64,000 bases of DNA from an archaeon. GTDB taxonomy: Archaea; Nanobdellota; Nanobdellia; Woesearchaeales; SM23-78. The position numbers were made by a program, and so were the translations under genes. The notes beneath the pieces were generated by a model that searched no databases, was not told the DNA's origin, and saw only the letters and a program-made list of their open reading frames with translations. Each line of letters starts with the position of its first letter. Position 1 is the stretch's first letter. Positions 10,787-32,125 of this stretch are shown here, piece by piece. The stretch covers positions 70,155 to 134,154 of the forward strand of contig JAZDMG010000007.1 of the NCBI GenBank assembly GCA_043801165.1, written 5' to 3'.

Positions 10787-10816
10787 TCCTAACGCCGAAC
10801 CTTAATCGAATCCGAA

Positions 10817-14726: not shown

Positions 14727-17700
14727 ATGGCAAATAAGCTATTTTATTCGTACACTAAATATTATAATATACCCGGCATATCACTAGGCATAGCTATTTC
14801 TGACCAAAAGCGAGCAAAGAGCCCGGTCTCAGACAATCCAAGGAATCACGTTCTTTTAGGGGAGGGTTGCGCCAAGAGCTCAGCGTGGAAGCAAAAGCAT
14901 CCAGGCGCAGCCCTCTTTTTTTACCTATTCACGCTGATAGCCATAATTCTCCAGGCAGTCCTGTGCAGCGCCCAAGGACAGATAGCATTGGACAAATCTC
15001 AGTATGGCGTCGGGGAGACTGTCAAGATAAAACTGATGAACGCAAGCCAGGACTTCGCACTCAATATAATCTCAGATAACGATGTCTTCAGGTATTCTGG
15101 TGAGCTCAAGGCAGAGATGGACTTCTACCCGACAAAGGAGGGGCAATACACGGTGCGCCTGAATGATCCTGGCAATAATATCCTGCTTGATGAGAAAACA
15201 TTCAGCGTCTCATACGATTACACGATAAGCAAGCCGGCTCTACTCTACACAGACAAGAAAGAATATCTCCTGGATGAGGCAGTGCAGATATTCGTGAACA
15301 CAAGCAGCGGAGGAGAATCAGCGGCTGAGCAGGAGCTCAGGATAGTATCAGACAAGGAATCGCTGAAATACCTCGGCGCCATAGACAGCCCGATCTCGTT
15401 CCTGCCACGCTATGCCGGCGCATACCAGCTCAAATTGATAAATCGATTCGTGCCTGTGGCCACCGCAGAATTCCTTGTGCTGAACCAGAGCATCAACGAA
15501 GCTGCCGCAGAGATCCCTGAGCAGCCAGAGACCCAGGCAACGGATAACAGGAGCTTTGAGAAGAACCAGACAGAGACAGGCATGGTCGGCATAGGCGTCC
15601 TGGACCAACAATCGACAGCCCAGAAACAGCAGGATGTTGGACTAGGAGCGATAGTAATCGACGACCAGCTGCTGCTGGCAGAGGACCAAGAGCTGGAGCT
15701 GCAGGCACCGAGAGGATTGAACATCACGCTGCCTTTCAGGTTAGAGCTCAGGGCAAGGCGCGGAGCCACGGCGAATGAAGACATAAGGAACAGCATAAGC
15801 ATCCTGAGAGCAGAAGGGACAAGATACGACGTCGAATACCTGCCTAGAAAAGCAAACATAAAAAGCATAGTTTTCAACAATCTCAAGCTGGACAGCGACA
15901 GGAGCTTTGATTTCGACGAGGTCACCCTCAAGAAAGAAGAATCCAAAAAAGAGCTGAGGGACAAGAAGATAGTCAAATCATTCTTCATAGACACAGCCCA
16001 GCTGAACTACACCAACGGCACAATAACAGCGATAGCGCTGGGCAAAGAGCTCTGGAAATGCAAAGAATGGAACTCCACCAGGGAGATATGCCTCGGCAAC
16101 TGGACTAAGGTACAGGACCTAACCCCTGGGAAGGAATACGAGATCATAATCACACCAGAAGACCCTGCCTACGCAGAGACCGGAGTGGCCAGCATAAACA
16201 CCAAGAAGCCAATATACCATCCGAACGAGACTGCAGAGATGATAATGGTTGTCCTGAACACAAAAGGACGCCTTGTCTCTAACGCGCAGGTGACGTTGTC
16301 AATTACAGCGCCTGACAGCACAACAACGACGCTAACCACAGCCAGCCAGGGCATAAAAGAGAGCAGCAGGGGGATATATGAGGCAGCCTACAGCAAGACA
16401 GGGCTGGAAGGCGAGTATTCGATGTTCGTCACAGCAACAGGATGGAACGTCAACTACAGCATGCAGTCGAGCTTTGAGGTGAGAGAGTTCTATGAGTTCG
16501 ACATCATAAGGGATACGCCTGTGACAATAGACCCCTGGCAGGGACCGTTCCAATCACGCATACAGCTGATGCCATACATCAACGTAACAAGCTATGATTT
16601 CACAGAAATCCTCCCCTCAGAGTTCGTTGTCACAGACAGCGGAGGAGCGCAGCAGAGGACAATAAACAACCAGACTTTCTTGACCTGGACAAACCTGAGC
16701 AGTGTAGAAACAGTTGGATACGAAGCCAACGCCCCACTGATAACACCGAACCTCTATGCGCTGGGCAGGTCATTCATAACCTATTTCGCCCAGGGAACAA
16801 ACATGCTGTTCACAGAAGCAAGGAACTGGTTCCTGGCTATAGATCCGCTGCAAAACCTCTTCTTCGATGATTTCGAGTCTTGGGGATGCAGGACAACAGG
16901 AGCGCCTATAGCAGGAAACAACTGCTTATACAGCGCAAATTGGGGACAGTTCACCAATTGCAACACTCCATCGACAGCAAGGTTCTGCACATCGGACGAT
17001 GGAAAAGAAGGGAATCACACCGCCAACTCCTATGCTATACAGATGACCAACTGGGTGATGGACTCAAGTGCAGGCCTATGGTTCACGCTAGATCCAAGCA
17101 TATACGACGACATAAACGTGAACGGATACATCTACGGAGCAAGCCTAGACAACGTCAGAGAATACTGCGCGATATGGGCAAGAGACTCAAACTCGATAGC
17201 ACCGATATACAACTGCACAAACACAATATGCACCGGAACAGACACAACCCCGCAGACAGATCTATACATCTATTTCAATATAAACCTGAGCAGCCTGAGC
17301 GGGATAAACCTTAGCGAAAGCAACATATCAGTGCACATAGGAGGAGCGCACTCAAACACAGCAGACTACTGCTTCTTCGACAGGATAAACATAACAGGGA
17401 TAGCATACCCGCCGAACATAACAAACCTGACCAACCCGCCAAACAACACCGTAACAAACCTGACAACAATCCAGTTCAACTTCACTGTCAACGCGACAAA
17501 AGACCTGGTGCTACCTAACTGCACGCTGTGGACAGACATGAACGGAAGCTGGATGGAAAACAGCACAATTTACAACGTGAGCAGGAACAGCATAACCAAC
17601 ATAACATTAGCAGACCTGCCAGACGGGACATTCAAATGGAATGTGATATGCTACACAAGGACAGGGCTCTACGACTGGTACGACAGCAACTACACATTGA

Positions 17701-20700
17701 CCATAGACGCCAGGCCTCCGATAAAGACAATCACAAGCATAGACAAGGACACCAGCGAGCCATGGAACACAACAAACAGAAACCCAGTGATAAACATAAC
17801 ACTCAACAAGAACGGGACATGCAGACTAAGCACGACAGATTCAAACTTCACAAGCATACCAAGCTATTACAATTGCACTGGAGCAAAAACAGCCAACATA
17901 AGCTGCACATACACAGGAACACAGCTAAACATAGGAACAAATTACCTATACGTAATATGCAATGACACATCAGGCCACAACGATAACACGACCTCGAACC
18001 TTGACATAACCTTCGAGGTCCTATGCGACGCACACAGCGACTGCGACAGCACATCATACTGCGACTACACCCAATACTGCCACTCTGATGAGCTAGCAGG
18101 CTATCCCTGCAACACACAAGCGCACACAGGGCTCGCATGGAATGATGTCTGCGGCAACGGCATCAATAGGTACTGCGTCAACGACAGCAGCTACAGCTAC
18201 ACAGGATGGTACTGCACAGGATCAGCAACAGACTGCGTATATAATGACCAGGGAAAAAGCTATGCGCTGGGCGAGACACTGTGCATCTCAGGAGTGAACG
18301 ATTACAGGAATTGCAGCAACAGCAACCTCTGGAGCAGCCAGGTCGACTGCGCTGAACAATTTGACGCGCATAACCAGTCTGCGACATACCATCCAGGCCT
18401 ATACTGCGGATACTATGGAACAGACCAAAGCTGCGTAAATGGTACATCCGGAGGATGCTCAGGAGCATCGACAGCATGCAATCCCTATATCTACAACCAG
18501 ACCATCACCGCATGCGGAAGCACACTAGAGGAATGCGACTGGGGATGCGGAGCAGGATGCGATGCCGGCAACAGCACAGCACCCGGGATAGCCAGCGGAA
18601 CATGCTACTACAACAAGAACTGCAATATCAACTGTTTATGGAGTCAGAGCTCAGAGGGAGCGCCTTCTTTCTGCATCAACGACAACGACGGAGGATCATG
18701 CGCATACAGCAACAGGACAGACCCGACGACATCAGACACATGCTACTGGAACGCCAGCTGCCAGAACACAGTTGGAGCGACCCTGAACAATAACAGCATA
18801 TTAATGGCAGACTACTGCGACTATTGCAACCAATACGGAAACCAAACAGGACAATACTCACCTGCACCAAACACGAGCTGCAGCTCAAACTGCGCAAATA
18901 GCGGAACCATCTATTATGATTCGGGTGGAACACCAGCGGACAGGAGCAATGACTGCAGCAACGGAATAACAATCATGCTGGGCGACACATTGACCCTTGG
19001 CGACATATGGAACGGAAGCGCACCGGCGCAATGCGACGCGGCAGAATGCAACCTAGACTGCGGAACAATGATAGGGACCTGCAGCGCAGGGATATGCAAC
19101 TGCACAGATCAGGACAATCCGCAATTGATATTGATCTGGCCAGACAACCTGACCTGGACCAACAACGCAAGCGTACAGTTCAGGTACAATGTCACAGACA
19201 TAAGCTCACAGATAAAGAACTGCTCATTAATCATAAACAATGTGGTGAACAGGACCAACACAAGCATCAACAAGAGCGTGGCAGAGCAGAGATTCATCGC
19301 GAACATGACCAACGGAACCTCCAACTGGAGCATAAGATGCTATGACAACAGCAGCAGCTTCAACCTCAACCAGTCAGAGACAAGAATCCTCGGGATAGAT
19401 ACGACGATCCCGCCCCTATTAAACCCGAGGATAAACGGGACCAATTTCACCATAAACAAGAACATATGCCTGAACATAACAGCGAACGACACATACTCAG
19501 GCATAAAAGACATCATAGCAACAATAATACCGCCCGGCCAGCCGGCAGAGAACATAACCCTGTACGACAACGCGACCACAAGCTGCGACGGGGCCAATGG
19601 AAACGGAGTATACTCTGCAGTATACGCATTGATATTCTCAGGCACATACAACTGGAGCTCAGCCTACGCCATAGACGATGCAAACAACCAGAACCTGACC
19701 TATCCAAACCTGCGCTGGAACGTCACCACCGGAGGGATAGTCAATGTGAGCATGAATTACCCGACGGCCAACATCAAGATAAACGAATCAGAATACAATT
19801 ATTTCTACGTGCAGAATTGCACCGCAGCCTGCAGCAACTCAGGAAGCAGCAACTGCACCGATGTAACCGTATCGATAGAATACTACCTCGCAGGGAGCTA
19901 TGAAACAATCAACACCACAACGACAGATCTAATCAGCAACAAGACATCATACTCCTGCGGCAACGTGACCCGAGGCAGCAACTGCACAACGACATTCAAC
20001 GTCACCGCAGGGCCGGGCAACAAGAGCTGGCCTGTCAGGTGCCGGGCAGATGGCGTCAACAGCGCGACAGCATTCTCAATCTCAAGGAACGTGACGATAA
20101 ACGACCACCCGACAGCCGGGATACTATACCCGATAAGCAGCCAGTGGCTGAAAGGAATCACCTATATCAACGCAAGCATCAGCTTCGACAGCGACGGATT
20201 AATCATCAACTACACCTTCAGCTATGACAACAACACAGCATTCAGCTCCCCGTCAATGATATGCAACGGAACAAGCAACAACTGCACATGGAACACCACT
20301 GCGCAGAACCAATGCCAGAACAACAGCATGAGCTGCTATCTGAGAGTGACTGTGACAGACAACGACAGGCTAACCAATAGCACATACATAATAGTCGGAT
20401 TCGATACCCAAGGACCGACGACAATCATAGGCAACCCTCAGAACTTCACCAACATAACAACCAGCCAGTACACTGTGAACGCGACAGTGACCGACAATGA
20501 GATAGGTACTATCAATCTGGTGATTTTCGAATACAGGGAAAACAGTACCGCATCATGGAAACAGGCATGCAACGACTCAGACCGGACAGCGCCATATGAA
20601 TGCAGCTGGAACACAACATCCCTGCTCGACGGAAAGACCTACGAAGTCAGAGCATATTCCACAGACGGGCTGAACAACACAGGAGCTGCGGACACAAGAA

Positions 20701-23700
20701 CCAACATAACAATAGACCGGAATGGGCCCACAATCAACCTTGAAAGGCCATCAAATAACTCATACAACACAGGAAACCAGACATTCTACTTCAATGTAAC
20801 AGACATCGCATCGAACATCAACAACTGCAGCATAATGCTTGACGGATCAATAAATCAGACCACATACAACCCTCAACAGAACATCTCCCTCAATTTCACG
20901 ATAAACGACAACACAGTAGGAAGCCACACATGGAGGATTGACTGCACCGATGGTGTAGGAAACGTGAACAGCAGCGAGACACGGACATTCACAGTGGACT
21001 TGACAGGGCCCGTAACCATCCTCAACAGGCCGCCGGCAGCAGACCCGAAGATGTACGGAATATACATTGTGAATGCCTCGGCGACAGACAGCGGAGTAGG
21101 AAACATCAGCACGGTGGCATTCGAATACAGGGAAAACAGCACCGCGGAATGGATATCAATATGCAACGCGACGCAGGGGCCAGCATATAACTGCAGCCTG
21201 GACACGACAGCGCTGGCCGACGGGACAACATACGAAGTAAGAGCATACGCGACGGATATATTGAACAACACAGGTTCCCCAAGCGTAAGATACTCTGTAA
21301 CCATAGATAACAACGGGCCAGCAATCGACGGCCTAAGCCCAGACCCAGGCTCCATAGACAACGACGGCAACGTGACATTCAGCTACCTAGTGGATGACAT
21401 AGGAAGTGGAGTAGCCAACTGCAGCCTGATGATAAACGGGTCTATCAACCAGACCAGCTTCGCTGTGCCAGAAGGAAGCGAACAATACTTCTACCTATAC
21501 AACCAGAACGACACCACCCTCAACTGGAGCATAAAATGCTGGGACGACTTCACAGCACAACCACACATGGCACAGACAAACCCGAGAACGCTCTACATAC
21601 TCATACTATACGTGCTTAAAAGCAACGTCACAACAGACAAGAAGACCTACGAGACAGGAAACCAGCAGTCAGACAGCATCAACATAACAACCACCACCAT
21701 CGACTACTCAAACCAGAGCATAGAAGCATCAGCAATCACAGACATAATCAAGACATCGGGCGAAAGCAGGAACATCTGGTGGAACACCACCTGGAGATAC
21801 AGGCTGAGGAACACGCTCACAGAGACAAGCAACAAAACAAGGAAAGACCAATGGGTCCACCTGTCATTCATGCTAGACCCTGACTGCAGCAACCTAGCGC
21901 ACAAGAACAGCCTGAGGCTGATACAGGACCCGGGAACGAACGTAGGCTTCAACCAATGGAACATAACCTACTGCACAGACACAAACTACATCAAGAGCCT
22001 GTGGGTGAGCTTCAGGCTGAACCTGACAGCAAACAGCAACACAAACATATACCTATACTACGACAATGCAAGCACAATCACAAAGACATCAAAAGACCAG
22101 GGTCCGATGAGGATGATCTGGGTGAGCGCAGGAGGGACAGGAAACGCACCCCTGCAGAACACAATAAAAACAGACCTTAACAGCGCGCTCTCGGCGCTGG
22201 GATTAGACCCAGGCACCTTCTATGACAACCTGAACACAACCGCGGCAAGCGCTGATTTCACGCTCACCAACATGCAGAATTACTCCATAGTATACTATGA
22301 CAGCGCAGCAAAATACAGCTCAAGCTGGTATACTACAGAAGCCAACGCAATGTTCCAATTCGTAAACCAATCAGGAAACCTATTCCTGACAGGACAGGAG
22401 CTAGGATACCAGGCAAACGCCGATGGATGGCTATACAATGGAGTATTCACAAACCTGACCCACGCAAGCGCAGGATACGTAGACAACGCGAACCCAACAA
22501 CATTCACAGTGGCAGCAAACCACCCGACGACAAAATACCTGGGTATGGGAACAACGGTGAGCGTGGCAGGGGATTACGAAGACGGATACACAACACTGGC
22601 AGGAAGCACCTCGGTCAGAATACTCAACTGGACAGGAAGCGCCACTCCGACAGCAGGAACAGCCAACGACGGGCTGAATGATCCCAGCTGCACAGGATTC
22701 TGCGGAAAGACGGTGTACTACTCAGGCCTGTTCTATATCTCAGCCACACAGGGAATACAGAACGTGACAGCAAGAAGCAGATTACTACAAGGGACAATAG
22801 AATGGTTCCTGAACAACAGCCTTGCAGAATCAAGGGGGCAGCAGGAGCAATGGATAGCAAGGAACACGACCGACACAACAGGAGCGCAAGGGCTATGGTC
22901 ATGGATACACCCTGCCGCAAGCATGAACGGAAGCTACCAGGCAGTGAGCCAAGCATCAAAAACAAAATACAACGACGCGACCAACTGGACTGGATTCAAC
23001 GTGACCATGGACAGGACGCCGCCAAACATCACGCTGAACGGGCCGCAAAATGAAAGCGAAGCCAACAGCTCAGTAACATTCTCATACTACGTTAATGACA
23101 CCCTCAGCACAGTACTGAACTGCACACTATTCATAGACGGCAATAAAGAAGACTCAGACCCGACAATACAGGAAGGGGTCATACAGTACTTCTACCCGAG
23201 AATCCCGACAGGAGGCTGGCATAATTGGAGCGTCAACTGCACAGACTACTACGGAAACATAGGTGCATCAGAGACATGGACAGTGTTCATCAAACCACCA
23301 GACCTCACAGTCACCAGCAGCGGCATAGCATTCAACAACACAACGCCGAGGGAAGGAGACAACATCACGATAATAGCCACTGTGCACAACACAGGAGGAT
23401 CAGACGCAGAGAACGTCAAGATGCAGTTCTACCTAAGAGACCCAGACACCGACGGAGTGCAGATAAACGGAAACTTCACAGCCAACATAACAGACATAAA
23501 TGGGGCACAGCCAAACGCGACATTCAACGTAAGCTGGGTGACAACAGGACCAGGACCGTTCAGCATATACGTTATAGTTGACCCTCCGACAGCCACCAAC
23601 GGAACGATTTTCGAATCAAACGAGACCAACAACAAGGCATACAACACCCTGAACGTGCCAGCATACAACCAATTCTACGGCCTGGTGAAGAACAATGTAT

Positions 23701-24224
23701 ACCTGAGCGACGAAAACAACAACTCGCTCTTCTATTACCTGAACATAACAAACGTCACTGGGAATATCTTCGCCATAGATGGAAGAAGCACGGTAGACTT
23801 CTCGGCGCTGCAATCGATGGGAAGAGATATCAACAACAACACCGCAGCCAATGACTTCAACGATACAGACACAGCACTCAACATGACCAGCTACAATGAT
23901 TCCATCAGAAGGACTTACACCGCAGGCACAGACACTCCCCTGACAACAAAAACATTCACATTTTACACCAAGACAACGCAAAACACTCCAATAATCAACA
24001 GCACCAACACAACCAGCTTTGTCACAGGAATACTATGGGACACAAGCGACGGAGGAACACAATACAACGGAACCCAGGACATCGCATTCATAACAGAGAT
24101 TAGCCAGAACAAGACAGGATCCTACGGCACATACGACTATGAGATAAAGGTACCGGTGAACCTGAAGAACTACGAAGGCCCAGGAAGCAGCGTCGCACTC
24201 TACTGGGAGATAAAAGAGCCATGA
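14727..24224 (+). CDS. Giant secreted/surface glycoprotein 1 (3165 aa)
   Basis: Single uninterrupted 9.5-kb ORF. Hydrophobic signal/anchor at aa 61-80. Very dense N-x-S/T sequons. Contains a jelly-roll-like module, a 38-Cys module, tandem Ig-like modules, a DUF2341-like opening (WWNTTWRYR), CARDB and a family-A-like C-terminal domain. No C-terminal TM or sorting tag (ends ALYWEIKEP). Start uncertain (60-aa leader before the signal). Confidence 0.9.
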   Translation: MANKLFYSYTKYYNIPGISLGIAISDQKRAKSPVSDNPRNHVLLGEGCAKSSAWKQKHPGAALFFYLFTLIAIILQAVLCSAQGQIALDKSQYGVGETVKIKLMNASQDFALNIISDNDVFRYSGELKAEMDFYPTKEGQYTVRLNDPGNNILLDEKTFSVSYDYTISKPALLYTDKKEYLLDEAVQIFVNTSSGGESAAEQELRIVSDKESLKYLGAIDSPISFLPRYAGAYQLKLINRFVPVATAEFLVLNQSINEAAAEIPEQPETQATDNRSFEKNQTETGMVGIGVLDQQSTAQKQQDVGLGAIVIDDQLLLAEDQELELQAPRGLNITLPFRLELRARRGATANEDIRNSISILRAEGTRYDVEYLPRKANIKSIVFNNLKLDSDRSFDFDEVTLKKEESKKELRDKKIVKSFFIDTAQLNYTNGTITAIALGKELWKCKEWNSTREICLGNWTKVQDLTPGKEYEIIITPEDPAYAETGVASINTKKPIYHPNETAEMIMVVLNTKGRLVSNAQVTLSITAPDSTTTTLTTASQGIKESSRGIYEAAYSKTGLEGEYSMFVTATGWNVNYSMQSSFEVREFYEFDIIRDTPVTIDPWQGPFQSRIQLMPYINVTSYDFTEILPSEFVVTDSGGAQQRTINNQTFLTWTNLSSVETVGYEANAPLITPNLYALGRSFITYFAQGTNMLFTEARNWFLAIDPLQNLFFDDFESWGCRTTGAPIAGNNCLYSANWGQFTNCNTPSTARFCTSDDGKEGNHTANSYAIQMTNWVMDSSAGLWFTLDPSIYDDINVNGYIYGASLDNVREYCAIWARDSNSIAPIYNCTNTICTGTDTTPQTDLYIYFNINLSSLSGINLSESNISVHIGGAHSNTADYCFFDRINITGIAYPPNITNLTNPPNNTVTNLTTIQFNFTVNATKDLVLPNCTLWTDMNGSWMENSTIYNVSRNSITNITLADLPDGTFKWNVICYTRTGLYDWYDSNYTLTIDARPPIKTITSIDKDTSEPWNTTNRNPVINITLNKNGTCRLSTTDSNFTSIPSYYNCTGAKTANISCTYTGTQLNIGTNYLYVICNDTSGHNDNTTSNLDITFEVLCDAHSDCDSTSYCDYTQYCHSDELAGYPCNTQAHTGLAWNDVCGNGINRYCVNDSSYSYTGWYCTGSATDCVYNDQGKSYALGETLCISGVNDYRNCSNSNLWSSQVDCAEQFDAHNQSATYHPGLYCGYYGTDQSCVNGTSGGCSGASTACNPYIYNQTITACGSTLEECDWGCGAGCDAGNSTAPGIASGTCYYNKNCNINCLWSQSSEGAPSFCINDNDGGSCAYSNRTDPTTSDTCYWNASCQNTVGATLNNNSILMADYCDYCNQYGNQTGQYSPAPNTSCSSNCANSGTIYYDSGGTPADRSNDCSNGITIMLGDTLTLGDIWNGSAPAQCDAAECNLDCGTMIGTCSAGICNCTDQDNPQLILIWPDNLTWTNNASVQFRYNVTDISSQIKNCSLIINNVVNRTNTSINKSVAEQRFIANMTNGTSNWSIRCYDNSSSFNLNQSETRILGIDTTIPPLLNPRINGTNFTINKNICLNITANDTYSGIKDIIATIIPPGQPAENITLYDNATTSCDGANGNGVYSAVYALIFSGTYNWSSAYAIDDANNQNLTYPNLRWNVTTGGIVNVSMNYPTANIKINESEYNYFYVQNCTAACSNSGSSNCTDVTVSIEYYLAGSYETINTTTTDLISNKTSYSCGNVTRGSNCTTTFNVTAGPGNKSWPVRCRADGVNSATAFSISRNVTINDHPTAGILYPISSQWLKGITYINASISFDSDGLIINYTFSYDNNTAFSSPSMICNGTSNNCTWNTTAQNQCQNNSMSCYLRVTVTDNDRLTNSTYIIVGFDTQGPTTIIGNPQNFTNITTSQYTVNATVTDNEIGTINLVIFEYRENSTASWKQACNDSDRTAPYECSWNTTSLLDGKTYEVRAYSTDGLNNTGAADTRTNITIDRNGPTINLERPSNNSYNTGNQTFYFNVTDIASNINNCSIMLDGSINQTTYNPQQNISLNFTINDNTVGSHTWRIDCTDGVGNVNSSETRTFTVDLTGPVTILNRPPAADPKMYGIYIVNASATDSGVGNISTVAFEYRENSTAEWISICNATQGPAYNCSLDTTALADGTTYEVRAYATDILNNTGSPSVRYSVTIDNNGPAIDGLSPDPGSIDNDGNVTFSYLVDDIGSGVANCSLMINGSINQTSFAVPEGSEQYFYLYNQNDTTLNWSIKCWDDFTAQPHMAQTNPRTLYILILYVLKSNVTTDKKTYETGNQQSDSINITTTTIDYSNQSIEASAITDIIKTSGESRNIWWNTTWRYRLRNTLTETSNKTRKDQWVHLSFMLDPDCSNLAHKNSLRLIQDPGTNVGFNQWNITYCTDTNYIKSLWVSFRLNLTANSNTNIYLYYDNASTITKTSKDQGPMRMIWVSAGGTGNAPLQNTIKTDLNSALSALGLDPGTFYDNLNTTAASADFTLTNMQNYSIVYYDSAAKYSSSWYTTEANAMFQFVNQSGNLFLTGQELGYQANADGWLYNGVFTNLTHASAGYVDNANPTTFTVAANHPTTKYLGMGTTVSVAGDYEDGYTTLAGSTSVRILNWTGSATPTAGTANDGLNDPSCTGFCGKTVYYSGLFYISATQGIQNVTARSRLLQGTIEWFLNNSLAESRGQQEQWIARNTTDTTGAQGLWSWIHPAASMNGSYQAVSQASKTKYNDATNWTGFNVTMDRTPPNITLNGPQNESEANSSVTFSYYVNDTLSTVLNCTLFIDGNKEDSDPTIQEGVIQYFYPRIPTGGWHNWSVNCTDYYGNIGASETWTVFIKPPDLTVTSSGIAFNNTTPREGDNITIIATVHNTGGSDAENVKMQFYLRDPDTDGVQINGNFTANITDINGAQPNATFNVSWVTTGPGPFSIYVIVDPPTATNGTIFESNETNNKAYNTLNVPAYNQFYGLVKNNVYLSDENNNSLFYYLNITNVTGNIFAIDGRSTVDFSALQSMGRDINNNTAANDFNDTDTALNMTSYNDSIRRTYTAGTDTPLTTKTFTFYTKTTQNTPIINSTNTTSFVTGILWDTSDGGTQYNGTQDIAFITEISQNKTGSYGTYDYEIKVPVNLKNYEGPGSSVALYWEIKEP
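16826..17410 (+). other. Giant 1: conserved jelly-roll-like (ConA/MAM-like) module
   Basis: Opens FLAIDPLQNLFFDDFESWG and closes ADYCFFDRINITGIAYPP. The FDDFE...W ... F(F/Y)(D/E)xI pattern resembles lectin/MAM-type beta-sandwiches (inference from the pattern only). Near-identical at nucleotide level to 44931-45512. Confidence 0.5.
18024..19103 (+). other. Giant 1: Cys-rich module (38 Cys in ~360 aa by my count)
   Basis: Runs from CDAHSDCDSTSYCDYTQYCHSDE to CGTMIGTCSAGICNC. The Cys pattern is conserved in giant 2 at 46126-47211. Confidence 0.8.
19121..21600 (+). repeat. Giant 1: tandem array of two alternating Ig-like module types (approximate bounds)
   Basis: Type 1: ...F.(Y/F)NV.D..S.I.NCS(L/I)...G..NQT ... 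W.I.C.D..GN.N.SE.R. Type 2: ...V.A(T/S).TD...G.I..V.FEYREN(S)T..W..(A/I)CN....P(Y)(E/N)C.W(N/D)T..L.DG.TYEVRAY(S/A)TD..NNTG. Confidence 0.7.
21777..22080 (+). other. Giant 1: DUF2341-like segment
   Basis: Opens WWNTTWRYRLRNTL and ends IYLYYDNAS. The W-x-N/D-x-x-W-x-Y/Q-R opening and the ...YYxN ending are my recollection of DUF2341. Not verified by search. Confidence 0.45.
23295..23657 (+). other. Giant 1: CARDB domain
   Basis: PPDLTVTSSGIAFNNTTPREGDNITIIATVHNTGGSDAENVKMQFY...IYVIVDPP...IFESNETNNKAYNTLNV is the canonical CARDB pattern (PDL...G....I...V.N.G...A..V.V ... D....V.E.NE.NN). Confidence 0.8.
23664..24221 (+). other. Giant 1: C-terminal family-A-like domain (186 aa)
   Basis: YNQFYGLVKNNVYLSDENNNSLFYYLNITNVTGNIFAIDGRSTVDFSAL aligns with A3 WKAYVGNVSGSFVLQNVNNRSIYEWPSVSVASGKLFISRNASVNFSGV. 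The C-terminal YDYEIKVP...ALYWEIKEP aligns with YDFQAIIAE...YYFYVELD. It is more divergent than the free copies, and the two family Cys are absent. Confidence 0.6.
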
Positions 24225-24300: not shown

Positions 24301-25302
24301 GTGGGTGACATTCTAGGCAAAGCGAAAGATAAGTTCAGAGAATTCTTTCATCAGAGCAAGAAACTAGTCCAACCGCCAAAAGAACTGCCAAGCATAATCA
24401 CACAGAACCCGGCAAAACCGCCAGCAAACAAGGTATTGAGCCCTCCAGAACCGCCAAAAGAACAGATGATGATAAGGACAGACCTTCCCCAACAGCAGAG
24501 CCAATCCAAAAACCTCAATCTCCCGAAGATAGTGCTGCCAAGAGCTCTCGAAACCATACATGAGCAGAAGAAACAGCTGACCAGCTTCCACGATGATGAC
24601 CTGCGCCAGTTCGAAGACGCCATAAGCAACATAAAGATAGACGTAATAAACAATGAGACCCCTGCCTCACTCAGAGAGAACAGGAGCGAAGCAGAGGCTT
24701 TATACAGGCCGAAAGAGCTTGGGGAAGGATACTTCGCAGAGATACAACACTACCTCAAGAACAAGGACGTAAAGGAAATCATAGATGACATACTCACCAA
24801 GGACTTCTTGACCAACATGAAGGACTACCATGACACAAAAGCCCAAGGAAAACCATTCTATCTGCACGGACAGGACCTGAAGCAGAAGCTGGAAGAGAAG
24901 ATGACCAGGCTAAGGGAGCTTGAAGAGGACTGGCACGAACTAAAAGCCAAAGCAGAGGAGAAAGAACAAAGAAAACACCTCATAGAAAAGCAGATAGACG
25001 AAGAAAGCCAGGACCTAAAGAACCTATTCAAGCAGATAAAGGTAAACCAATGGATGGAAAAAGAAGCCCAGAAAGAGCACTATTTCAAGCTCAGGAACAA
25101 TCAGGAGCTCAAAAGCCTCAATGACCTAAGAAAAGCCCTGACCTACATGGCTGACGAAGAGTTCAACCACCATGTCAGCCCGGGAAGAAATGACTTTGCG
25201 AACTGGACAAAAGAGGCCCTGCAAAATCAGGAGATAGGCGAAAAGATAGGAACCGCAAAGACAAAGGAAGAGCTCCAGGAAATACTCAAGAAACCTTTCT
25301 AG
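24301..25302 (+). CDS. Hypothetical Pro-rich / coiled-coil protein
   Basis: GTG start preceded by AAAGGAGAG and by TTTAAATA at ~24260. Pro-rich N-terminus (PPKELPSIITQNPAKPPANKVLSPPEPP), a charged coiled coil, and a C-terminal F.L.N..EL.SL.DL..AL..M.DEEF.HHV...RNDFANW motif. I have seen similar motifs in other archaeal proteins but cannot name the family with confidence. Confidence 0.6.
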   Translation: MGDILGKAKDKFREFFHQSKKLVQPPKELPSIITQNPAKPPANKVLSPPEPPKEQMMIRTDLPQQQSQSKNLNLPKIVLPRALETIHEQKKQLTSFHDDDLRQFEDAISNIKIDVINNETPASLRENRSEAEALYRPKELGEGYFAEIQHYLKNKDVKEIIDDILTKDFLTNMKDYHDTKAQGKPFYLHGQDLKQKLEEKMTRLRELEEDWHELKAKAEEKEQRKHLIEKQIDEESQDLKNLFKQIKVNQWMEKEAQKEHYFKLRNNQELKSLNDLRKALTYMADEEFNHHVSPGRNDFANWTKEALQNQEIGEKIGTAKTKEELQEILKKPF

Positions 25303-25344: not shown

Positions 25345-26109
25345 TTAGCCAGAGATTTCAGCGTAAAAGTAATAGGTATTACCAATACTTGCGCTCCTGT
25401 TCTCACCGACAATGAACTGGAAATCATACTCCTTTGTGATCGAAGCATTGTTATCAAAACCCATTGAGTTCTGATCAATGAAAGTCCCATAGACCAGGTT
25501 TGTGGTGTCTGTAAGCAGTATCTCCTGGAATGCGGCAGTATCCATACTTCCCTGCATAGAGCCGTTCACATAAGTGGCTGTGCTAGGGCAAGTGTTCGCG
25601 TTAACAGGAGAAATGCCGCCTGTAAAAGACATTGCCCTATGCCTAGTGAAATTGAAGGTGTTGTTCAGGTTATCAGCAGAAGAACCGCCCATGCTGAGCA
25701 CAAGCTGCTCATCCCAGATTATCGAGCTATTGGCGCATCTGATAAGGGTCCAATTGACACTACCATTCCTTGAAACGAAGATATAACCTGCAAGAGCAGA
25801 AGAGTTGATGTTCCACTCGTAGATGCTTATGCCGTTGACATTCCTCAAGACCATCTTACCAGTGATGTTTCCGACATAAGCCTTCCAGCTCTGGTCCTGG
25901 GAAACGACGTCAAGGGATAGAGTATTTATGGTCCCGCCAAGGTCAGCTCGACTTCCGGCATCAGTAGTAGGGCCGCTGTCAGAAGCTATAAAGCTAGGGA
26001 TTAAACCTGTCGGCACTGCCTTACTCAACCCGACCAGGGCGAAGTAAAGGGAGCAGCTCAAAACAGCAAGGAAAAAGACCAGCTTAGCCCTTTTACTAAC
26101 ATTAGTCAC
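25345..26109 (-). CDS. Secreted protein, paralog family A (A1)
   Basis: GTG start 7 nt after GAGGTG. Sec-type signal peptide. Family motifs WKAYVGNITG, IYEW, CANSS, NTF, FQEILLTD and YDFQFIVGE, with C-terminal YYFYAEISG. Confidence 0.85.
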   Translation of the reverse strand: MTNVSKRAKLVFFLAVLSCSLYFALVGLSKAVPTGLIPSFIASDSGPTTDAGSRADLGGTINTLSLDVVSQDQSWKAYVGNITGKMVLRNVNGISIYEWNINSSALAGYIFVSRNGSVNWTLIRCANSSIIWDEQLVLSMGGSSADNLNNTFNFTRHRAMSFTGGISPVNANTCPSTATYVNGSMQGSMDTAAFQEILLTDTTNLVYGTFIDQNSMGFDNNASITKEYDFQFIVGENRSASIGNTYYFYAEISG

Positions 26110-26226: not shown

Positions 26227-27024
26227 TTACTCTATCTCAGCCCAAAAGTAATATGTTGTGGGGGTGTCTTCGTAGCCGTTGTGGCCGTTCTCTGCCACCA
26301 ACATCTGAAAGTCGTGCTCCCTGTTGTCAAAGCCGAACATGTCAGTGTTGTTGTTGAACGCATTGTTCTCGATCATGGCAGTGTAAACAAGCTTGTCACC
26401 ATCTGTCAAGAGCACGTTCTCGAAGTCATCATCATTCTGCATCATGTCGTATCGGTATGTGTTGGTTGCGTGGCAGTCTGCAACATTGGTTGAAACTTCG
26501 GTTATGTTTCTTGAGCCGACGAAAAAGTTGCGATCAAGGGTGTAGTTGAAGGTCTCCCATATACCATCGGAAGCGTCATCTCCTATTCCGTACCAATCCT
26601 CAACATCCTGCTCGTCAAATGTCTGGCCTGATGCGCCTATTGAATAGTTAAAGCATCTTATGGTGGCCCAACTGATGGTGTCGTTTAATGATGCATAAAT
26701 CTCTCCCTTTGGCTCCTGGGTGGTCCAGTTGTAGAAGACATAACCATAGGAATCTTCCAATGTGATTATACCCGAGATGTTACCATAATAACCCTGCCAA
26801 GCTTGGGTGGTTGCGATTGTAATCAGGCTCAGTTCAGTAACGTTACCCGCCTCAGCCGTTATGTTTGGAACGGGATAGCTAGATACATTTGGCCTTGACG
26901 ACTGGATGTATGTTATTGAACGTACACCGTAAGGCACATCCGAATCAGCCAGGACGAAGGACGCTGCTGCCAAAACACACACTAAACCTATTATAAAACT
27001 AGTTTTATTTATTCTCTTTTCCAT
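26227..27024 (-). CDS. Secreted protein, paralog family A (A2)
   Basis: Signal peptide (FIIGLVCVLAAASFVLA). Motifs WQGYYGNISG, FYNW, ETF, FENVLLTD and HDFQMLVAE, with C-terminal YYFWAEIE. Has its own BRE/TATA at 27117-27131. Confidence 0.85.
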   Translation of the reverse strand: MEKRINKTSFIIGLVCVLAAASFVLADSDVPYGVRSITYIQSSRPNVSSYPVPNITAEAGNVTELSLITIATTQAWQGYYGNISGIITLEDSYGYVFYNWTTQEPKGEIYASLNDTISWATIRCFNYSIGASGQTFDEQDVEDWYGIGDDASDGIWETFNYTLDRNFFVGSRNITEVSTNVADCHATNTYRYDMMQNDDDFENVLLTDGDKLVYTAMIENNAFNNNTDMFGFDNREHDFQMLVAENGHNGYEDTPTTYYFWAEIE

Positions 27025-27179: not shown

Positions 27180-28136
27180 TTAAGCACCAGTCGCAGAAAA
27201 AACCACAGTACCGTTACAGATACCAAAAGGGTTGTCGGTTATATTAATATGCAGCCTCCAATAGGTGGAATTAACCATCAACACCGCAGGATCTATCTGC
27301 TTAGCAATGCTAACCCCGGGAACCATAGCTGCAGTACCTGTTATGCTGATCATAGAATCATAGCCAACATCGCTTCCCGAGTACCTTTCGTTTGAAATCG
27401 ATAGATTTCTCTGCTCACAGCGCATAGCAATCCCCGTACCGGTGGTCGCGTTATCCCCGCCAAAGCCATAAACAGTCACATTAATAGGAAGATTACCAAA
27501 ATTAGTCACATTAGCCTGGGTAGAATTAGACGTATCATCAACAGATAAGGTGCCGTAATCAATAACCTCAGTTACGTTCAAAGCCAAAAGCGCACCAATG
27601 GAAGCATTATTCGCGTTAAAACCACTTGTGTTATAATCATCCCAGGCAGTAGCATTAACCCTCCAAGACCCGTTGTTGGCATAATACCACACATCGAACA
27701 CACAGGTCCAATTCTGATAATAACCAGAATAGCTCCCGTTCACAGAGCAATTGCCAGTAGTATAATGGGTATTATTATCATCCGGATCAGAAGAATAGTT
27801 AAGGTAATAATAAAACGTAGCGTTTACATAAAAGATTGTGTTGCCACCATTGAAATCTCTTGTCTGAACTAAACAAGAAACAGCCTTTGTGGTACCTCCG
27901 TTGAGCACTACTGTGCTCCCATTATTACAGGTTATGTTAATAACCTCAGGATAGGCATTGGTGACGTTAACCGTGGCATGGACACTGTAGTTCCTGTAAT
28001 TCGGACCAGGACCCCAACTGACCGCAGATGGAATCCTAACGACAAGAAAAAAGATTAGCAGAGATATAAATATTAAGAAGGCTTTCCTTCCGAGAGACTC
28101 TGACATTTTACCAAATAAGAGACCATTCATAGTCAA
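27180..28136 (-). CDS. Secreted protein, paralog family B (B1)
   Basis: Signal peptide followed by the conserved SWGPGPNYRNYSV. Shares DPDDNNTHYT, WYYANNGSWR, ANVTNFGNLPINVTVYGFGG, NERYS, NSTYWR and PFGICNGTVVFSA with 37309..38262 and with the C-terminus of giant 2. Starts 14 nt after the A3 stop (likely co-transcribed). Confidence 0.85.
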   Translation of the reverse strand: MTMNGLLFGKMSESLGRKAFLIFISLLIFFLVVRIPSAVSWGPGPNYRNYSVHATVNVTNAYPEVINITCNNGSTVVLNGGTTKAVSCLVQTRDFNGGNTIFYVNATFYYYLNYSSDPDDNNTHYTTGNCSVNGSYSGYYQNWTCVFDVWYYANNGSWRVNATAWDDYNTSGFNANNASIGALLALNVTEVIDYGTLSVDDTSNSTQANVTNFGNLPINVTVYGFGGDNATTGTGIAMRCEQRNLSISNERYSGSDVGYDSMISITGTAAMVPGVSIAKQIDPAVLMVNSTYWRLHINITDNPFGICNGTVVFSATGA

Positions 28137-28150: not shown

Positions 28151-28918
28151 CTAAGTATTATCAAGTTCAACGTAAAAGTAATATGTGGTTGTGACTGAAG
28201 TGGTTCCGTTCTCTGCAATTATTGCCTGGAAATCGTATTGAGAAGAGTTATCATAGCCCCTTCGATTATCATTCAAAAGGGAAGTATAAACCATTGTACT
28301 CCCATCAAATAAGAGAACTTCCTGGAAATCAGCAGTTGAACTGGCTGCCTGGACAGTGTCATTCACCCAGGTGGCGATTGAGCTGCAGTTATTCTGAGCT
28401 ATAGGAATACCTCCGACATCAAATGACCTATGAGCCTTTGCAATGAAGGTGTTATTGATATTATCTGCATCAATGTTACCAAAACCCAACAAAAGCTGTT
28501 CGCTAACCACCTGAGCATTGTTCGCACAGCCAACTCCAGAGAAATTGACAGAAGCATTCCTGGATATGAACAATTTCCCGCTGGCAACAGACACAGACGG
28601 CCACTCATAGATACTCCTGTTGTTCACATTCTGTAAAACAAATGATCCCGAAACATTTCCAACATAAGCCTTCCAGTTAAGATCCTGTTGCTCAACTGAT
28701 AAAACAGCAGTTATTATGTTCCCACCAGAATCGTTCCTGCTGGCAGGAATCCTGACTGGACCCGTATCAACAGTCGGAGTACCAACTATGGTAGCACCAA
28801 AAGGCGCAGCATTGACCAAATAAAATGAAAAGCTACAGATTAGCACAATCACAGCTAAGAATATAAGCTGTTTTACGCGTCTTCCCATCATATGATCGTG
28901 TTTTGTCATTGTGTTCAC
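28151..28918 (-). CDS. Secreted protein, paralog family A (A3)
   Basis: Signal peptide. Motifs WKAYVGNVSG, IYEW, GCANN, NNTF, FQEVLLFD and YDFQAIIAE, with C-terminal YYFYVELDNT. Confidence 0.85.
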   Translation of the reverse strand: MNTMTKHDHMMGRRVKQLIFLAVIVLICSFSFYLVNAAPFGATIVGTPTVDTGPVRIPASRNDSGGNIITAVLSVEQQDLNWKAYVGNVSGSFVLQNVNNRSIYEWPSVSVASGKLFISRNASVNFSGVGCANNAQVVSEQLLLGFGNIDADNINNTFIAKAHRSFDVGGIPIAQNNCSSIATWVNDTVQAASSTADFQEVLLFDGSTMVYTSLLNDNRRGYDNSSQYDFQAIIAENGTTSVTTTYYFYVELDNT

Positions 28919-28985: not shown

Positions 28986-29726
28986 TCAATCCAACTCTAT
29001 GTAAAAGTACATTGATGTTGATCCGGCACCATCAGATTCTCCCACAAGCAACTCGAAGTCATAGCTTGTTCCTGTGAAACTTGTGGCTGAATCATTTATC
29101 AAAGTCGTATAGACAGCTGTTCCGGCGGTGTCTACTAACAATATCTGATAATAGAGTGACGCCACTCTCCCAGTATCACTGTACGCATTAGTGCTGTTGC
29201 ACCCGCTCAAGGCCGCACTGCCAACCTGGAAGTTGGGATGAGTGTTCCCTGCGAATGTCTCGAAAACACCATCAGCATCCGCCGCAACTATACCTAGTGA
29301 AGTGTCAATTGCATCTATCAATGTTGAATTAGCGCAGCTTATCCCTGCCCATGCAACGTTGTTGATTGATGAAGCGAATATCTCTCCTGCAGGCACTCCC
29401 ACACCGGTCCAATCGTAGAACACTTTGCCATCGCTATCCTGCAAAGTCACGTTTCCAGAGATGTTTCCATAGAAACCAGCCCAGTGGGTTGTTATAGTAT
29501 CACCATATAAATCAAGCTGCGTTACGTTCCCAGCCATAGCATCAACAGCGACTGTTGATGTGTTGGTGAAACTAGCCCTGCTTGTCGCTCCGAGGGTGTA
29601 ATCTGTAGCGCCCTGAACAGCAAAAACCGATGTCACTCCCGTCAGGAACAATCCTAACGCCACTGCCAATATAAACACTGTCTTAAAAACTGCTTTCCTT
29701 TCCATTTTGTCTTTCCTCCATATCAT
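28986..29726 (-). CDS. Secreted protein, paralog family A (A4)
   Basis: Signal peptide (the ATG at 29705, MERKAVFK, is an alternative start). Motifs WAGFYGNISG, FYDW, SCANS, ETF, YQILLVD and YDFELLVGE, with C-terminal MYFYIELD. Followed by a hairpin plus T-run terminator. Confidence 0.85.
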   Translation of the reverse strand: MIWRKDKMERKAVFKTVFILAVALGLFLTGVTSVFAVQGATDYTLGATSRASFTNTSTVAVDAMAGNVTQLDLYGDTITTHWAGFYGNISGNVTLQDSDGKVFYDWTGVGVPAGEIFASSINNVAWAGISCANSTLIDAIDTSLGIVAADADGVFETFAGNTHPNFQVGSAALSGCNSTNAYSDTGRVASLYYQILLVDTAGTAVYTTLINDSATSFTGTSYDFELLVGESDGAGSTSMYFYIELD

Positions 29727-29768: not shown

Positions 29769-30422
29769 CTAATCTGTCTTCGCCTCCTCACTAGTCTTGA
29801 TTCTCACTAGGTTTGAAGGATCGTAAAGCGCATAGAATCTTGCAGTTGAGGAAGCACTAATCATTCGCTTGGCCTCGCTCTGAGATTTAACATTGAATAG
29901 AATCGTTTTTGAAGTGCCGTCTCGCGCACGAATAAAGCTCTTCTTCAGTTCCCGCTTGAGATCAGGGTTCTCAGACACTATAAACATAGAGATTTCATCC
30001 GAATCTAGCTGGTTCAGGTTAATGAATATTGAATCTATAACCTTTATATGCTCATCTAATGACCAAAAGGCCTTCTCAAGGAAATAGTGAAGCTGGGGCT
30101 TGTCCAGGAACCATATCTTCAAAATCACCTTATTATACTCGCTCAGTTGAAGAAGCTTTTTCTCTACAAAATCACTGGCGCTGGTAATCAAGAATGACTG
30201 GTTCCCAACAAGAGAGTAGAGCAGCCTTGGCTGCCCTTTGTCTCTGTTGGAGATTCTTTTACATTGAACAAGTCCGGCCATCTCTAGAAGACGCAGTTGT
30301 TGGCTGATGTTTGCAACTGAGGTACTTGATAGCTTTGCCAACTGTAGCGGTGACTTGCTTCCTGAAGAGAGTATCTTCAGGATGTCCCATTTCGAGGCCG
30401 TAAATAGTGTTTCTTGTTCCAT
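29769..30422 (-). CDS. ArsR-like winged-HTH regulator with ~130-aa C-terminal domain of unknown function
   Basis: N-terminus WDILKILSSGSKSPLQLAKLSSTSVANISQQLRLLEMAGLVQCKR...RLLYSL has the ArsR/SmtB-type wHTH pattern. Lies 42 nt upstream of A4 on the same strand. Confidence 0.7.
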   Translation of the reverse strand: MEQETLFTASKWDILKILSSGSKSPLQLAKLSSTSVANISQQLRLLEMAGLVQCKRISNRDKGQPRLLYSLVGNQSFLITSASDFVEKKLLQLSEYNKVILKIWFLDKPQLHYFLEKAFWSLDEHIKVIDSIFINLNQLDSDEISMFIVSENPDLKRELKKSFIRARDGTSKTILFNVKSQSEAKRMISASSTARFYALYDPSNLVRIKTSEEAKTD

Positions 30423-30678: not shown

Positions 30679-31431
30679 TCAACCCAGCTCAGCGTAGAAG
30701 AAGTAGGTTGTTGATATCTCACGCGGATCATCCGGAACAATAAACTGGAAATCATACACCCTTGTGTCAAAACCAACCTTCTTATTCTCTAATAACGTAA
30801 CAAACACAAGGTTCCTGGTGTCAGACAGCAACACTTCCTGGAATTGGGAAGTCTCGTTAAATGTTTGAGGCGCATCGTTAATATAAGTGGATATTGCATA
30901 ACAAGAGCTATTCTGAATGCTACCGACGCCACCGATAACAAATGACTTGTGAATCTTTTGCCTAAAGGTACTGTTAATGCTGTCATCGCTCAAAGAGGAT
31001 ATGTTGAGATAATTCTCCTCAGAGATTATCTGGCTGCCATTGGCACAACCCAATGAAGAGAAATTAATCGAATTATTCCTTGAGACATACACCTCTCCCT
31101 GAATCGAAGTCAGAGACCAATCGTATATGGACCTGTTACTGGAATCATCCAATGTAATCCTGCCCGTAACATTTCCTACATATGCCTTCCATTTACTCGT
31201 CTGAGATGTAACATTCAAACGGAGTGTCGTGAATGACCCTCCTTCCGCTGCATGTGAATCAGCAGGCCTAACGCTGGCATTTTCTGTGGTGCCGTATATT
31301 ATTGACACTCCCTGAGGGATGGCAATGGTTTCCACGGACATGAGCAGGAGAATAACAAGTATCAGGATTACTATTATCTTAGGCGTGATCCAGCCTATTC
31401 TACATCTTTTAACACAATCTATTTTTGCCAT
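30679..31431 (-). CDS. Secreted protein, paralog family A (A5)
   Basis: Long hydrophobic signal/anchor. Motifs WKAYVGNVTG, IYDW, GCANG, NSTF, FQEVLLSD and YDFQFIVPD, with C-terminal YFFYAELG. The start overlaps the stop of the upstream 2xHTH gene by 13 nt. Confidence 0.85.
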   Translation of the reverse strand: MAKIDCVKRCRIGWITPKIIVILILVILLLMSVETIAIPQGVSIIYGTTENASVRPADSHAAEGGSFTTLRLNVTSQTSKWKAYVGNVTGRITLDDSSNRSIYDWSLTSIQGEVYVSRNNSINFSSLGCANGSQIISEENYLNISSLSDDSINSTFRQKIHKSFVIGGVGSIQNSSCYAISTYINDAPQTFNETSQFQEVLLSDTRNLVFVTLLENKKVGFDTRVYDFQFIVPDDPREISTTYFFYAELG

Positions 31432-31934
31432 TTTTCAACTTTATTCTTGAACCTAGCGTGCACAGTCCAAACAGTCCGCTGGTCCCTCCCAATCATTCTC
31501 GCAATATCAGCATAGGTCAGGTTTGATTCTCTCAGAAACGACACAAGCGATTCAAGAATACTCAATTGCGAATTTTTAAATGCACTCAGAGGTATTGTAA
31601 GGCTGGTGTTTGCCAAAACGAGTGGCTTCTTGTTCTTCACCGCCGCATATGTACTCCAGATTGTCCTGACATCTCGATCAAGTAGATGGGCTATTTGCCT
31701 GTTTTGAAGTCCTTTGACCTCCTTCAAGTATTTAACTACCACTTGGAGTGGAGCTAGATTACTTTGAAATATTGAGATTGGAAGATAGAGCTCGTTCTCA
31801 TATTTTATAGTTAAATAAGAAACAGAAGGCAATTCCGACATGGTGCCTTCTTGCTCGAAGTTGGATTCGCCCAAATCTGCTTGCAGACCGTAGTCTAACA
31901 TATCGCGACTTACAAAAAAGTACTGTTTGGACAT
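31419..31934 (-). CDS. Small protein with two sigma-70-region-4/LuxR-like HTH repeats
   Basis: Internal duplication: LQVVVKYLKEVKGLQNRQIAHLLDRDVRTIWSTYAAVKNK and LESLVSFLRESNLTYADIARMIGRDQRTVWTVHARFKNK. TTTATAAA on the minus strand lies ~25 nt upstream of the ATG (leaderless-type spacing). Confidence 0.7.
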   Translation of the reverse strand: MSKQYFFVSRDMLDYGLQADLGESNFEQEGTMSELPSVSYLTIKYENELYLPISIFQSNLAPLQVVVKYLKEVKGLQNRQIAHLLDRDVRTIWSTYAAVKNKKPLVLANTSLTIPLSAFKNSQLSILESLVSFLRESNLTYADIARMIGRDQRTVWTVHARFKNKVEKWQK

Positions 31935-32125
31935 TTACAATCATATAATGTAAGTGTGTATTTATAAACATTTTGATTAAGACTGTTATCAAGTATGACC
32001 TGGTAAGTAATTTAATCATGTTATGTAAGTAATATCCCTATTGAATATTCTCGCAGGAAGAAGCACAAAACAAAAGGTTTAAATATGATAATCCAAGAAA
32101 AATAGGCTTGGGAGGGAAAAAATTC

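Follow-up and report, generated by a model that had tools for sequence, protein, structure and literature searches.

FimH and PapG are the two-domain tip adhesins of chaperone-usher pili, in which the adhesin carries a subunit-like domain. In the type IX secretion system (T9SS) of Bacteroidota, an immunoglobulin-like (Ig-like) C-terminal domain (CTD) of ~80–100 amino acids (aa) directs outer-membrane translocation, is cleaved off and has no free-standing paralogs. In archaea, a thread is built by chaperone-free donor-strand complementation from Saci_0406, a Sec-exported, N-glycosylated subunit, and the paralog encoded beside it, Saci_0405, is the proposed chain-terminating cap (PMC9715654). 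Archaea do have donor-strand filaments that need no chaperone and include paralogous cap subunits (PMC9715654; PMC12518558, PMC9245690). TasA/TapA fibers, AbpA bundling pili and CanA cannulae consist of ~200-aa, beta-rich, Sec-secreted proteins that self-assemble through an N-terminal strand; the TasA, AbpA and CanA systems also have an accessory protein, related in one segment, that serves to nucleate or anchor the fiber, and CanA conserves acidic Ca-type sites (PMC10151520, PMC9245690, PMC12518558). The system described here is encoded in a 64,000-nucleotide stretch of DNA from an archaeon of the Woesearchaeales (assembly GCA_043801165.1, contig JAZDMG010000007.1, positions 70,155 to 134,154), referred to below as the window. 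It comprises a protein of 3165 aa, giant 1, and a cluster of small free-standing proteins, family A, and the C-terminal ~190 aa of giant 1 (CT) belong to the same superfamily, with the same predicted fold, as the core of the A proteins.

Giant 1 is encoded on the forward strand (14727..24224), and an identical 3165-aa protein (P0164) is present in the public protein set. It carries a signal-like hydrophobic N-terminus, MG2, Ig-like domains of the Big_7, Big_3_3 and Big_13 families, a Cys-rich region, CARDB and CT. The domain just upstream of CT (aa 2858–2971; 23298..23639, forward strand) is a true CARDB member with an Ig-like fold: it was matched by Pfam PF07705 at an E-value of 1e-9, with 37–38.9 bits against a cut-off of 22.7, and this part of the structure model resembled the PF1109 CARDB structures 2kl6 and 3idu (Foldseek, E 3e-5 to 5e-4, target template modelling score 0.70–0.73). 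CT occupies aa 2973–3165 (23643..24221, forward strand), and its homology to A starts at aa 2979. The initial annotation of the window had proposed that giant 1 ends, at 23664–24221, in a divergent family A domain placed directly after a CARDB domain. These coordinates are correct, 23664 being codon 2980 of giant 1 and 24221 its last sense base, and the tail does follow PF07705 at once.

The five A paralogs of the window are all encoded on the reverse strand, at 25345..26109 (254 aa), 26227..27024 (265 aa), 28151..28918 (A3, 255 aa), 28986..29726 (246 aa) and 30679..31431 (A5, 250 aa). A3 consists of a signal peptide (aa 1–37), an N-terminal segment (aa 38–80) and a core (aa 81–254). When homologs were collected for the alignments, the tail of giant 1 retrieved 12 and then 96 sequences, and A3 retrieved 67. 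The comparison of the CT family with the A family by hhalign gave a probability of 98.0%, an E-value of 1.5e-13 and a score of 90.6 over 161 columns. A second alignment gave 97.7% and 2.2e-12, and the A family compared with a deeper CARDB+CT alignment gave 98.4% and 7.6e-15, the three runs together covering 156–161 columns. The scores of 31 controls, in which the CT alignment was reversed, column-shuffled or block-shuffled, lay between 10.5 and 21.2. Profile–profile comparison, together with sequence intermediates and matching predicted secondary structure, thus bears out the proposed family A domain.

Comparison with a single-family hidden Markov model (HMM) was less clear. The HMM of the five window proteins (A1–A5), which had been put forward as a check on the homology, gave a divided result: it was positive on the isolated 186-aa tail (11.5 bits, colinear with the anchor motifs) and negative on the full-length giant, where it did not rise above the background of the 481 window open reading frames (ORFs). 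The score on the tail has a high bias term and was reached by one of 1000 shuffles, and the sixteen other 186-aa windows of giant 1 gave at most 3.3 bits. These results, and a pairwise identity between CT and A of ~19%, would suit a chance likeness arising from composition, that is, from N/T/S-rich, beta-rich sequence. The larger data set speaks against it. An HMM of 72 A sequences scored 21.6 bits on the tail, a value that none of 1000 shuffles reached (shuffle maximum 8.7), and the hhalign matches run over ~160 colinear columns. Intermediates of the CT family were also matched by the A HMM directly, at 1e-13 to 3e-17 (P0132 at 3e-17; P0120 and P0137 at ~5e-13), as were 29 of 136 further CT representatives, the best at 1e-14. 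In P0120 the first strand, GWHHYYGNASGNIKL...NFLW, resembles the A signature NWKAYVGNVSG...SIYEW.

Most of the anchor motifs by which the tail had originally been likened to A were paired as claimed in the alignment (FYG..., TGNIFA...VDFS, YDYEIKVP and ALYWEIKE). The pairing of FNDT with NNTF did not hold, and the A motif DNINNTF is instead aligned with DSIRRTY of CT. The alignment always begins at A3 aa 80–81, and no extension into CARDB or into the A N-terminal segment was obtained with the longer CARDB+CT profile. Both families have a (near-)invariant N-x-T/S sequon at the equivalent alignment position, VNDT in A and NSTN in CT (A3 N186, window ~28361–28363, reverse strand; INSTN of giant 1, window ~23995–24009, forward strand), which points to a conserved N-glycan or else to an Asn with a structural role. 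The region as a whole is extremely sequon-rich. Neither CT nor A matched a Pfam or NCBIfam family, even when all alignment members were scanned against Pfam, and their profiles found only chance nanobody matches among PDB sequences (E of at least 0.006).

Models of the two families were generated with AlphaFold2 (AF2) from disjoint alignments. The A3 model (m3233729408fd) reached a predicted local distance difference test score (pLDDT) of 91.4 and a predicted template modelling score (pTM) of 0.83, with mean pLDDT ranging from 75 to 91 over five A3 models, and the CARDB+CT model (m288c2efbf1fd) reached 93.5 and 0.86. When the secondary structures of A3 and CT were compared column by column along the hhalign alignment, they agreed in DSSP class at 130 of 159 positions, with every strand and both helices in register, and in these predicted structures the A core and CT are equivalent in fold at the level of secondary structure. 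Since the models share all secondary-structure elements in order, and the two families are genomic neighbors, the chance explanation is effectively refuted, and we regard it as extremely improbable. No PDB or BFVD neighbor of the A3 model was found by Foldseek at E<=0.001, and the matches of the CARDB+CT model were confined to its CARDB part. The weak, non-significant Foldseek neighbors of A3 have beta-sandwich/jelly-roll and carbohydrate-binding module (CBM)-type folds.

CT differs from the free-standing proteins in two respects, both of which had been noted in the initial annotation and were confirmed here. The first is the absence of the segment that follows the signal peptide of A (A3 aa 38–80, 43 residues; 28679..28807, reverse strand), which has no CT counterpart: the alignment never reaches it, and CARDB abuts CT instead. 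This segment carries the conserved mature N-terminus xPxGA[ST][IV] and a strand-like motif, R.D.GG.I.T..L...QQ. Its residues P39 and G41 are near-invariant and lie just past a V/S/T-x-A site, with a strand-prone stretch behind them. The second is the absence of the family cysteines; C131 and C178 are (near-)invariant in A, and no Cys occurs in the 186 aa of the tail. As both hallmarks of A, the post-signal PxG segment and the C131/C178 pair, are missing from CT, it represents a separate branch of the superfamily and not an A protein.

All five window A proteins have small residues at -3 and -1 ahead of the conserved PxG, and the A signal peptide is probably cleaved after this AxA-like (V/S/T-x-A) site. 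Archaeal type IV pilins were considered as a match for A and rejected, the signals fitting signal peptidase I (V/S/T-x-A after a hydrophobic stretch) and not the class III type; ahead of the hydrophobic stretch, position -1 of the A N-termini is not consistently G/A. The A domain is always placed after a signal peptide and closes the protein, and it occasionally opens longer proteins of 630–730 aa. In four other loci, proteins of 364–730 aa with an N-terminal A-like domain were observed (L003 12726–14612, L005 12738–14927, L001 12920–14845 and L004 11004–12095). These keep the GGNVT.L strand with ~8 residues between signal and strand, and have no PxG peptide and unrelated C-terminal regions.

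To analyze the distribution of CT, its profile was run exhaustively with HMMER against 1.84 billion representatives. The search detected 791 clusters at E<=1e-3, 636 of them at E<=1e-30, so that the cassette is not a feature of one giant, as first described, and instead a widespread C-terminal unit. Architectures were counted in the 136 new representatives among the 150 best matches: CT ends 0–5 aa from the C-terminus in every one of them, as it is C-terminal in the first 96 homologs as well, and CARDB lies directly before it in 120. The length of the carrier proteins ranges from 153 to 5301 aa, about 45 of the 136 exceeding 2000 aa, and a free-standing protein of ~322 aa made of a signal, CARDB and CT is a frequent minimal form. 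The CT motifs GILWDTSD and YDYEIKVP are strictly conserved. CARDB+CT is therefore a conserved cassette with which hundreds of large surface proteins of Woese- and Nanoarchaeota (DPANN), unrelated in other respects, terminate. A few CT or B homologs (family B is described below) come from bins labelled Bacteroidota, Alphaproteobacteria or 'Methanosarcinales' (P0115, L084 and several L0xx loci); because the distribution is otherwise uniformly Woese-/Nanoarchaeota, these contigs look mis-binned or mis-labelled.

This distribution bears on the possibility that A and CT are ligand-binding heads, that is, lectin-like or Ca2+-dependent domains, located distally in the giants to attach them to a host or substrate, while the free A proteins, soluble or tethered, would bind that same ligand. 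The two families share conserved acidic and aromatic residues (DSI/D.IN.TF, F..(V/I)L(L/W)D and YD(F/Y)(Q/E)), the weak structural neighbors are of beta-sandwich/jelly-roll and CBM type, and DPANN archaea depend on attachment to a host. However, adhesin heads are normally variable, and CT is the invariant part over 791 clusters with wholly different bodies. No lectin or CBM family was matched by Pfam, by HMM comparison with PDB sequences or by Foldseek, and giant 1, with its cleavable-looking signal and no other anchor, would stay unattached. A binding head is accordingly a quite unlikely role for CT.

The genomic context links CT to A. CT-ending proteins and A clusters adjoin in all eight informative loci (the window, L006, L009, L010, L001, L003, L004 and L005), and the order A-A-B-A-A, with a CARDB-CT-terminated protein beside it, is common to the window (3165 aa), L006 (3462 aa), L009 (3206 aa) and L010 (1642 aa). 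One A3 ortholog of 90% identity is present in two independent assemblies of identical gene order, and the last 1415 aa of the 3462-aa giant near it are 87% identical to giant 1, CARDB and CT included. Two further A-centered loci have the order regulator-A-regulator-A-A-B-A-A, followed by a gene of ~335 aa and then a CARDB-CT protein (3206 and 1642 aa, respectively); a fourth is broken by a contig end. In the CT-centered loci L001, L003, L004 and L005, which come from other genomes, A or A-like genes lie within 10 kb. The cassette-bearing proteins are thus encoded beside A and B gene clusters. An assembly or fusion artifact was ruled out for giant 1, as the same ending is found in the syntenic 3462-aa ortholog (two independent assemblies) and in many other giants. 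A CT-ending gene of ~830 aa was also observed directly before the free-standing CARDB-CT gene (L001 7494–10001, L003 7435–9951 and L002 5426–7864), and therefore those clusters encode two CT-terminated proteins in tandem.

A 597-aa type-I membrane protein (32108..33901, forward strand), with a signal peptide, a C-terminal transmembrane helix and a cytoplasmic Zn ribbon, is encoded in the same region of the window. Its orthologs, 32–36% identical, adjoin the CARDB-CT genes in L001–L005, and genes of ~591–598 aa hold its position in L006, L009 and L010, so that it was found at all loci examined. A weak, sub-threshold ArlF/ArlG-like stretch was detected at aa 417–495. This protein is a candidate for the membrane base or anchor of the system.

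A similar arrangement was found for a second family, B. The window encodes two free-standing B proteins, one of 318 aa embedded in the A cluster (27180..28136, reverse strand) and one of 317 aa (37309..38262, reverse strand). It also encodes a second giant, giant 2 (3125 aa; 43006..52383, forward strand), which shares 51% identity with giant 1 across ~2300 aa and has a different end. The last 267 aa of giant 2 (aa 2859–3125; 51580..52380, forward strand) matched both free B proteins by BLASTP with 35% identity (E 1.8e-39 and 5e-42), and this fused copy lacks the conserved mature N-terminus of free B, SWGPGPNY. The B alignment recovered 78 genome loci (L011–L088), in which 58 B-like domains are free-standing and 35 form the extreme C-terminal end of a larger ORF; A genes are present in 41 of the 78. 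The possibility that B is a further divergent A was rejected (hhalign probability 0.1–0.3%). Since A and B both occur free and fused, two unrelated small secreted families of one cluster are each represented by fused copies at the ends of large surface proteins. In the alignment of the two giants, aa 14 of giant 2 corresponds to aa 63 of giant 1, whose first ATG leaves ~60 residues ahead of the hydrophobic signal (window 14727–14910), so the true start of giant 1 may lie downstream of 14727. On the coding strands, AT skew is 0.35–0.41 in giant 1 (16000–24000) and 0.18–0.24 in giant 2 (44000–52000), which fits Asn/Thr/Ser-rich proteins with A-rich codon usage.

With regard to function, giant 1 has a cleavable-looking N-terminal signal (CSA|QG site) and no C-terminal transmembrane segment or sorting tag, from which we infer that the cassette is the only candidate retention element. 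A retention device would also be expected in the CT cassette because it is the sole part conserved across hundreds of different bodies. The most likely role of CT is that of a subunit-mimicking attachment or incorporation module, for which we consider the case about evenly balanced. According to this proposal, A (and B) would be exported by Sec and cleaved after an AxA-like site, and the mature proteins would assemble outside the cell, most simply as a chaperone-free fiber. A large protein with one C-terminal subunit-like domain would enter the assembly as a terminal member, and its incorporation would retain and display the long, Ig-rich, adhesin-like body. Giant 1 would join by its A-like end and the paralogous giant 2 by its B-like end. 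The tandem A paralogs and their conserved mature N-terminus suggest building blocks and not anchor-only proteins, and this N-terminus is presumably more than a linker, since a mere linker is not expected to be so conserved.

A more speculative extension concerns the conserved mature N-terminal peptide of free A, missing from CT, which may be an inter-subunit connector or donor. On this reading CT might receive a donor but have none to offer, and so would terminate the chain in the manner of FimH in type 1 pili, an analogy that the initial annotation had put forward as speculation. Several features fit it: the invariable placement of CT at the extreme C-terminus, the equally constant position of A behind a signal peptide, the conservation of the mature A N-terminus, the synteny of A and CT, the parallel of B and the archaeal precedents named above. 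True donor-strand exchange, with the A peptide as donor and CT as an acceptor only, is nevertheless a doubtful proposition, drawn by analogy.

Alternatively, A and CT might share a fold that serves for docking and not for polymerization. It would bind one receptor of the envelope, for example the 597-aa protein, the S-layer or a surface glycan, with the giants and the A proteins as parallel clients. In a variant of this explanation, A would be anchored in the membrane by an uncleaved signal and would heterodimerize with CT to hold the giant. The position of CT at the extreme C-terminus of very diverse cargo, like that of S-layer homology (SLH), dockerin or T9SS-CTD anchors, is what would be expected of such a domain, and the 597-aa transmembrane protein is kept at every locus examined. 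The strict conservation of GILWDTSD and YDYEIKVP suggests one invariant partner, and both AF2 models, of A and of CT, have the appearance of complete domains predicted with confidence. However, docking leaves unexplained why an anchor-only protein should be present as 3–5 tandem paralogs per cluster, why the mature N-terminus of A is conserved and why the same free/fused duality recurs in the unrelated family B, and the small -3/-1 residues before PxG in all five A proteins argue for cleavage of the signal. Taken jointly, the two forms of docking are a somewhat improbable explanation.

The incorporation of CT into an A assembly also has points against it. The existence of an A polymer, or of a contact between A and CT, is conjecture by analogy with known fibers, and signal cleavage in A relies on the -3/-1 rule only. 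In the A3 model, segment 38–81 has a high pLDDT (86–93) and is non-regular save for a two-residue beta-bridge at aa 40–41; as modelled it is no textbook donor strand, and may pack in cis. The pTM of 0.86 suggests a rigid interface between CARDB and CT, and CARDB could cover the CT surface that matches the N-terminal segment of A, which would leave no open acceptor site. The A fold had no Foldseek likeness to any pilin, TasA, thread, AbpA or CanA structure, and no recognizable assembly machinery is encoded in the window. The only T2SSE-like match there is a PIN-KH ATPase (61947..63821), and no adjacent SipW-type signal peptidase gene was found in the window.

Compared with the described systems, the locus resembles FimH/PapG in layout. 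In both, the receptor-facing part is N-terminal and the subunit-like domain C-terminal, without the N-terminal extension of the free subunits, and the adhesin gene lies beside several paralogous subunit genes; the ~322-aa proteins with signal, CARDB and CT match FimH in size and layout. Unlike FimH/PapG, the system belongs to a one-membrane archaeon, with no chaperone or usher Pfam family among the window proteins; the archaeal donor-strand filaments lack these as well. The A/CT domain has ~190 aa and two helices, there was no Foldseek likeness to Ig-like pilins (SafA 2co3 only at E 3.9), and the cargo reaches 5,301 aa. Donor-strand exchange would here be an analogy.

The thread of Saci_0406 and Saci_0405 is similar in that a subunit paralog encoded nearby would form the chain end. 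Its cap has a donor tail but no acceptor site, a polarity opposite to that proposed for CT, and is a small protein, where CT ends a giant. Neither by sequence nor by Foldseek did the thread match A or CT. The TasA/TapA, AbpA and CanA proteins, which resemble A in size, beta content and Sec secretion, showed no homology to A/CT by HMM comparison with PDB sequences or by Foldseek, and none of these systems fuses subunit domains to giant cargo. Among the donor-strand systems as a whole, no subunit-fold match was obtained for A3 (PDB, E<=0.001), and the CT model matched only in CARDB. The T9SS CTD is like CT in being a conserved folded domain with which hundreds of surface proteins end, at the extreme C-terminus, although these are otherwise unrelated and in many cases very large. 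CT differs in occurring in archaea, on proteins with Sec signals, and in having free-standing paralogs (A). Its identification as a T9SS CTD was rejected, given the archaeal context and no Pfam/NCBIfam match.

The remaining genes mark the window as archaeal. They include an XPD helicase, a PyrB-PyrI fusion, the PIN-KH ATPase and a seryl-tRNA synthetase (SerRS) of an archaeal set, and the nearest database relatives of the window proteins are labelled Woesearchaeota, Nanoarchaeota or 'archaeon'. The A cluster is interleaved with one B gene (27180..28136) and two helix-turn-helix (HTH) regulators, an ArsR/MarR-type one inside the cluster (29769..30422, reverse strand) and an HTH_23-type one at its head (31419..31934, reverse strand), both kept in L006, L008 and L010. 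Between giant 1 and the A cluster lies the gene of a 333-aa coiled-coil-like protein with no signal peptide (24301..25302, forward strand), with syntenic counterparts of 333 and 338 aa in L006 and L010. A 931-aa protein (38422..41217, reverse strand) has orthologs directly upstream of CARDB-CT genes in other genomes, and its relatives (~930–1040 aa) recur in L001–L005 and L006/L007.

A dense sensory block was observed upstream of giant 1 (window 1117–14486). It comprises three KaiC-like/DUF7504 paralogs (1117–3075), a response regulator (3113–3499), a 1360-aa HisKA/HATPase protein (4038–8120), a HAMP protein (8023–9024), two SBP_bac_3 proteins (9077–10786) and a 1002-aa multi-PAS/GAF protein (11478–14486), divergent from giant 1. 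At 59589–61172 (reverse strand), the catalytic (PyrB) and regulatory (PyrI) chains of aspartate carbamoyltransferase are joined in one ORF of 527 aa.

Bacterial pili already provide the principle of an adhesin with a subunit-like domain. To our knowledge, CARDB itself has no assigned function. The fixed CARDB-CT pairing is not a described architecture in the libraries searched, and the literature searched on DPANN and CARDB, and on giant surface proteins of Woesearchaeota, contained nothing describing these families. As far as these libraries and papers go, no description seems to exist of the fold, the DPANN setting, the pairing with CARDB, the scale (hundreds of cargo families, to 5.3 kaa) or the A+B arrangement.

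How DPANN archaea, very small episymbionts that are for the most part uncultured, stay attached to their hosts is an open question; their genomes devote a large share of coding capacity to giant surface proteins without a recognized anchor. The CARDB-CT cassette, tied by homology and synteny to small secreted paralogs, provides a concrete model for the retention and display of these giants. It also provides an annotation handle, with two new domain families plus family B, a predicted A/CT fold that has no neighbor in PDB or BFVD, and candidate subunits for structural work. It is possible, and we advance it only tentatively, that Woese- and Nanoarchaeota build a hitherto undescribed, chaperone-free surface fiber or lattice from A and B, as two subunit families of new fold, onto which hundreds of different adhesin-like giants are loaded by acceptor-only C-terminal copies of one subunit (CARDB plus an A-like domain, or a B-like domain). 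If true, this would amount to a modular archaeal counterpart of tip-adhesin incorporation and to the long-sought physical basis of the attachment of DPANN cells to their hosts.

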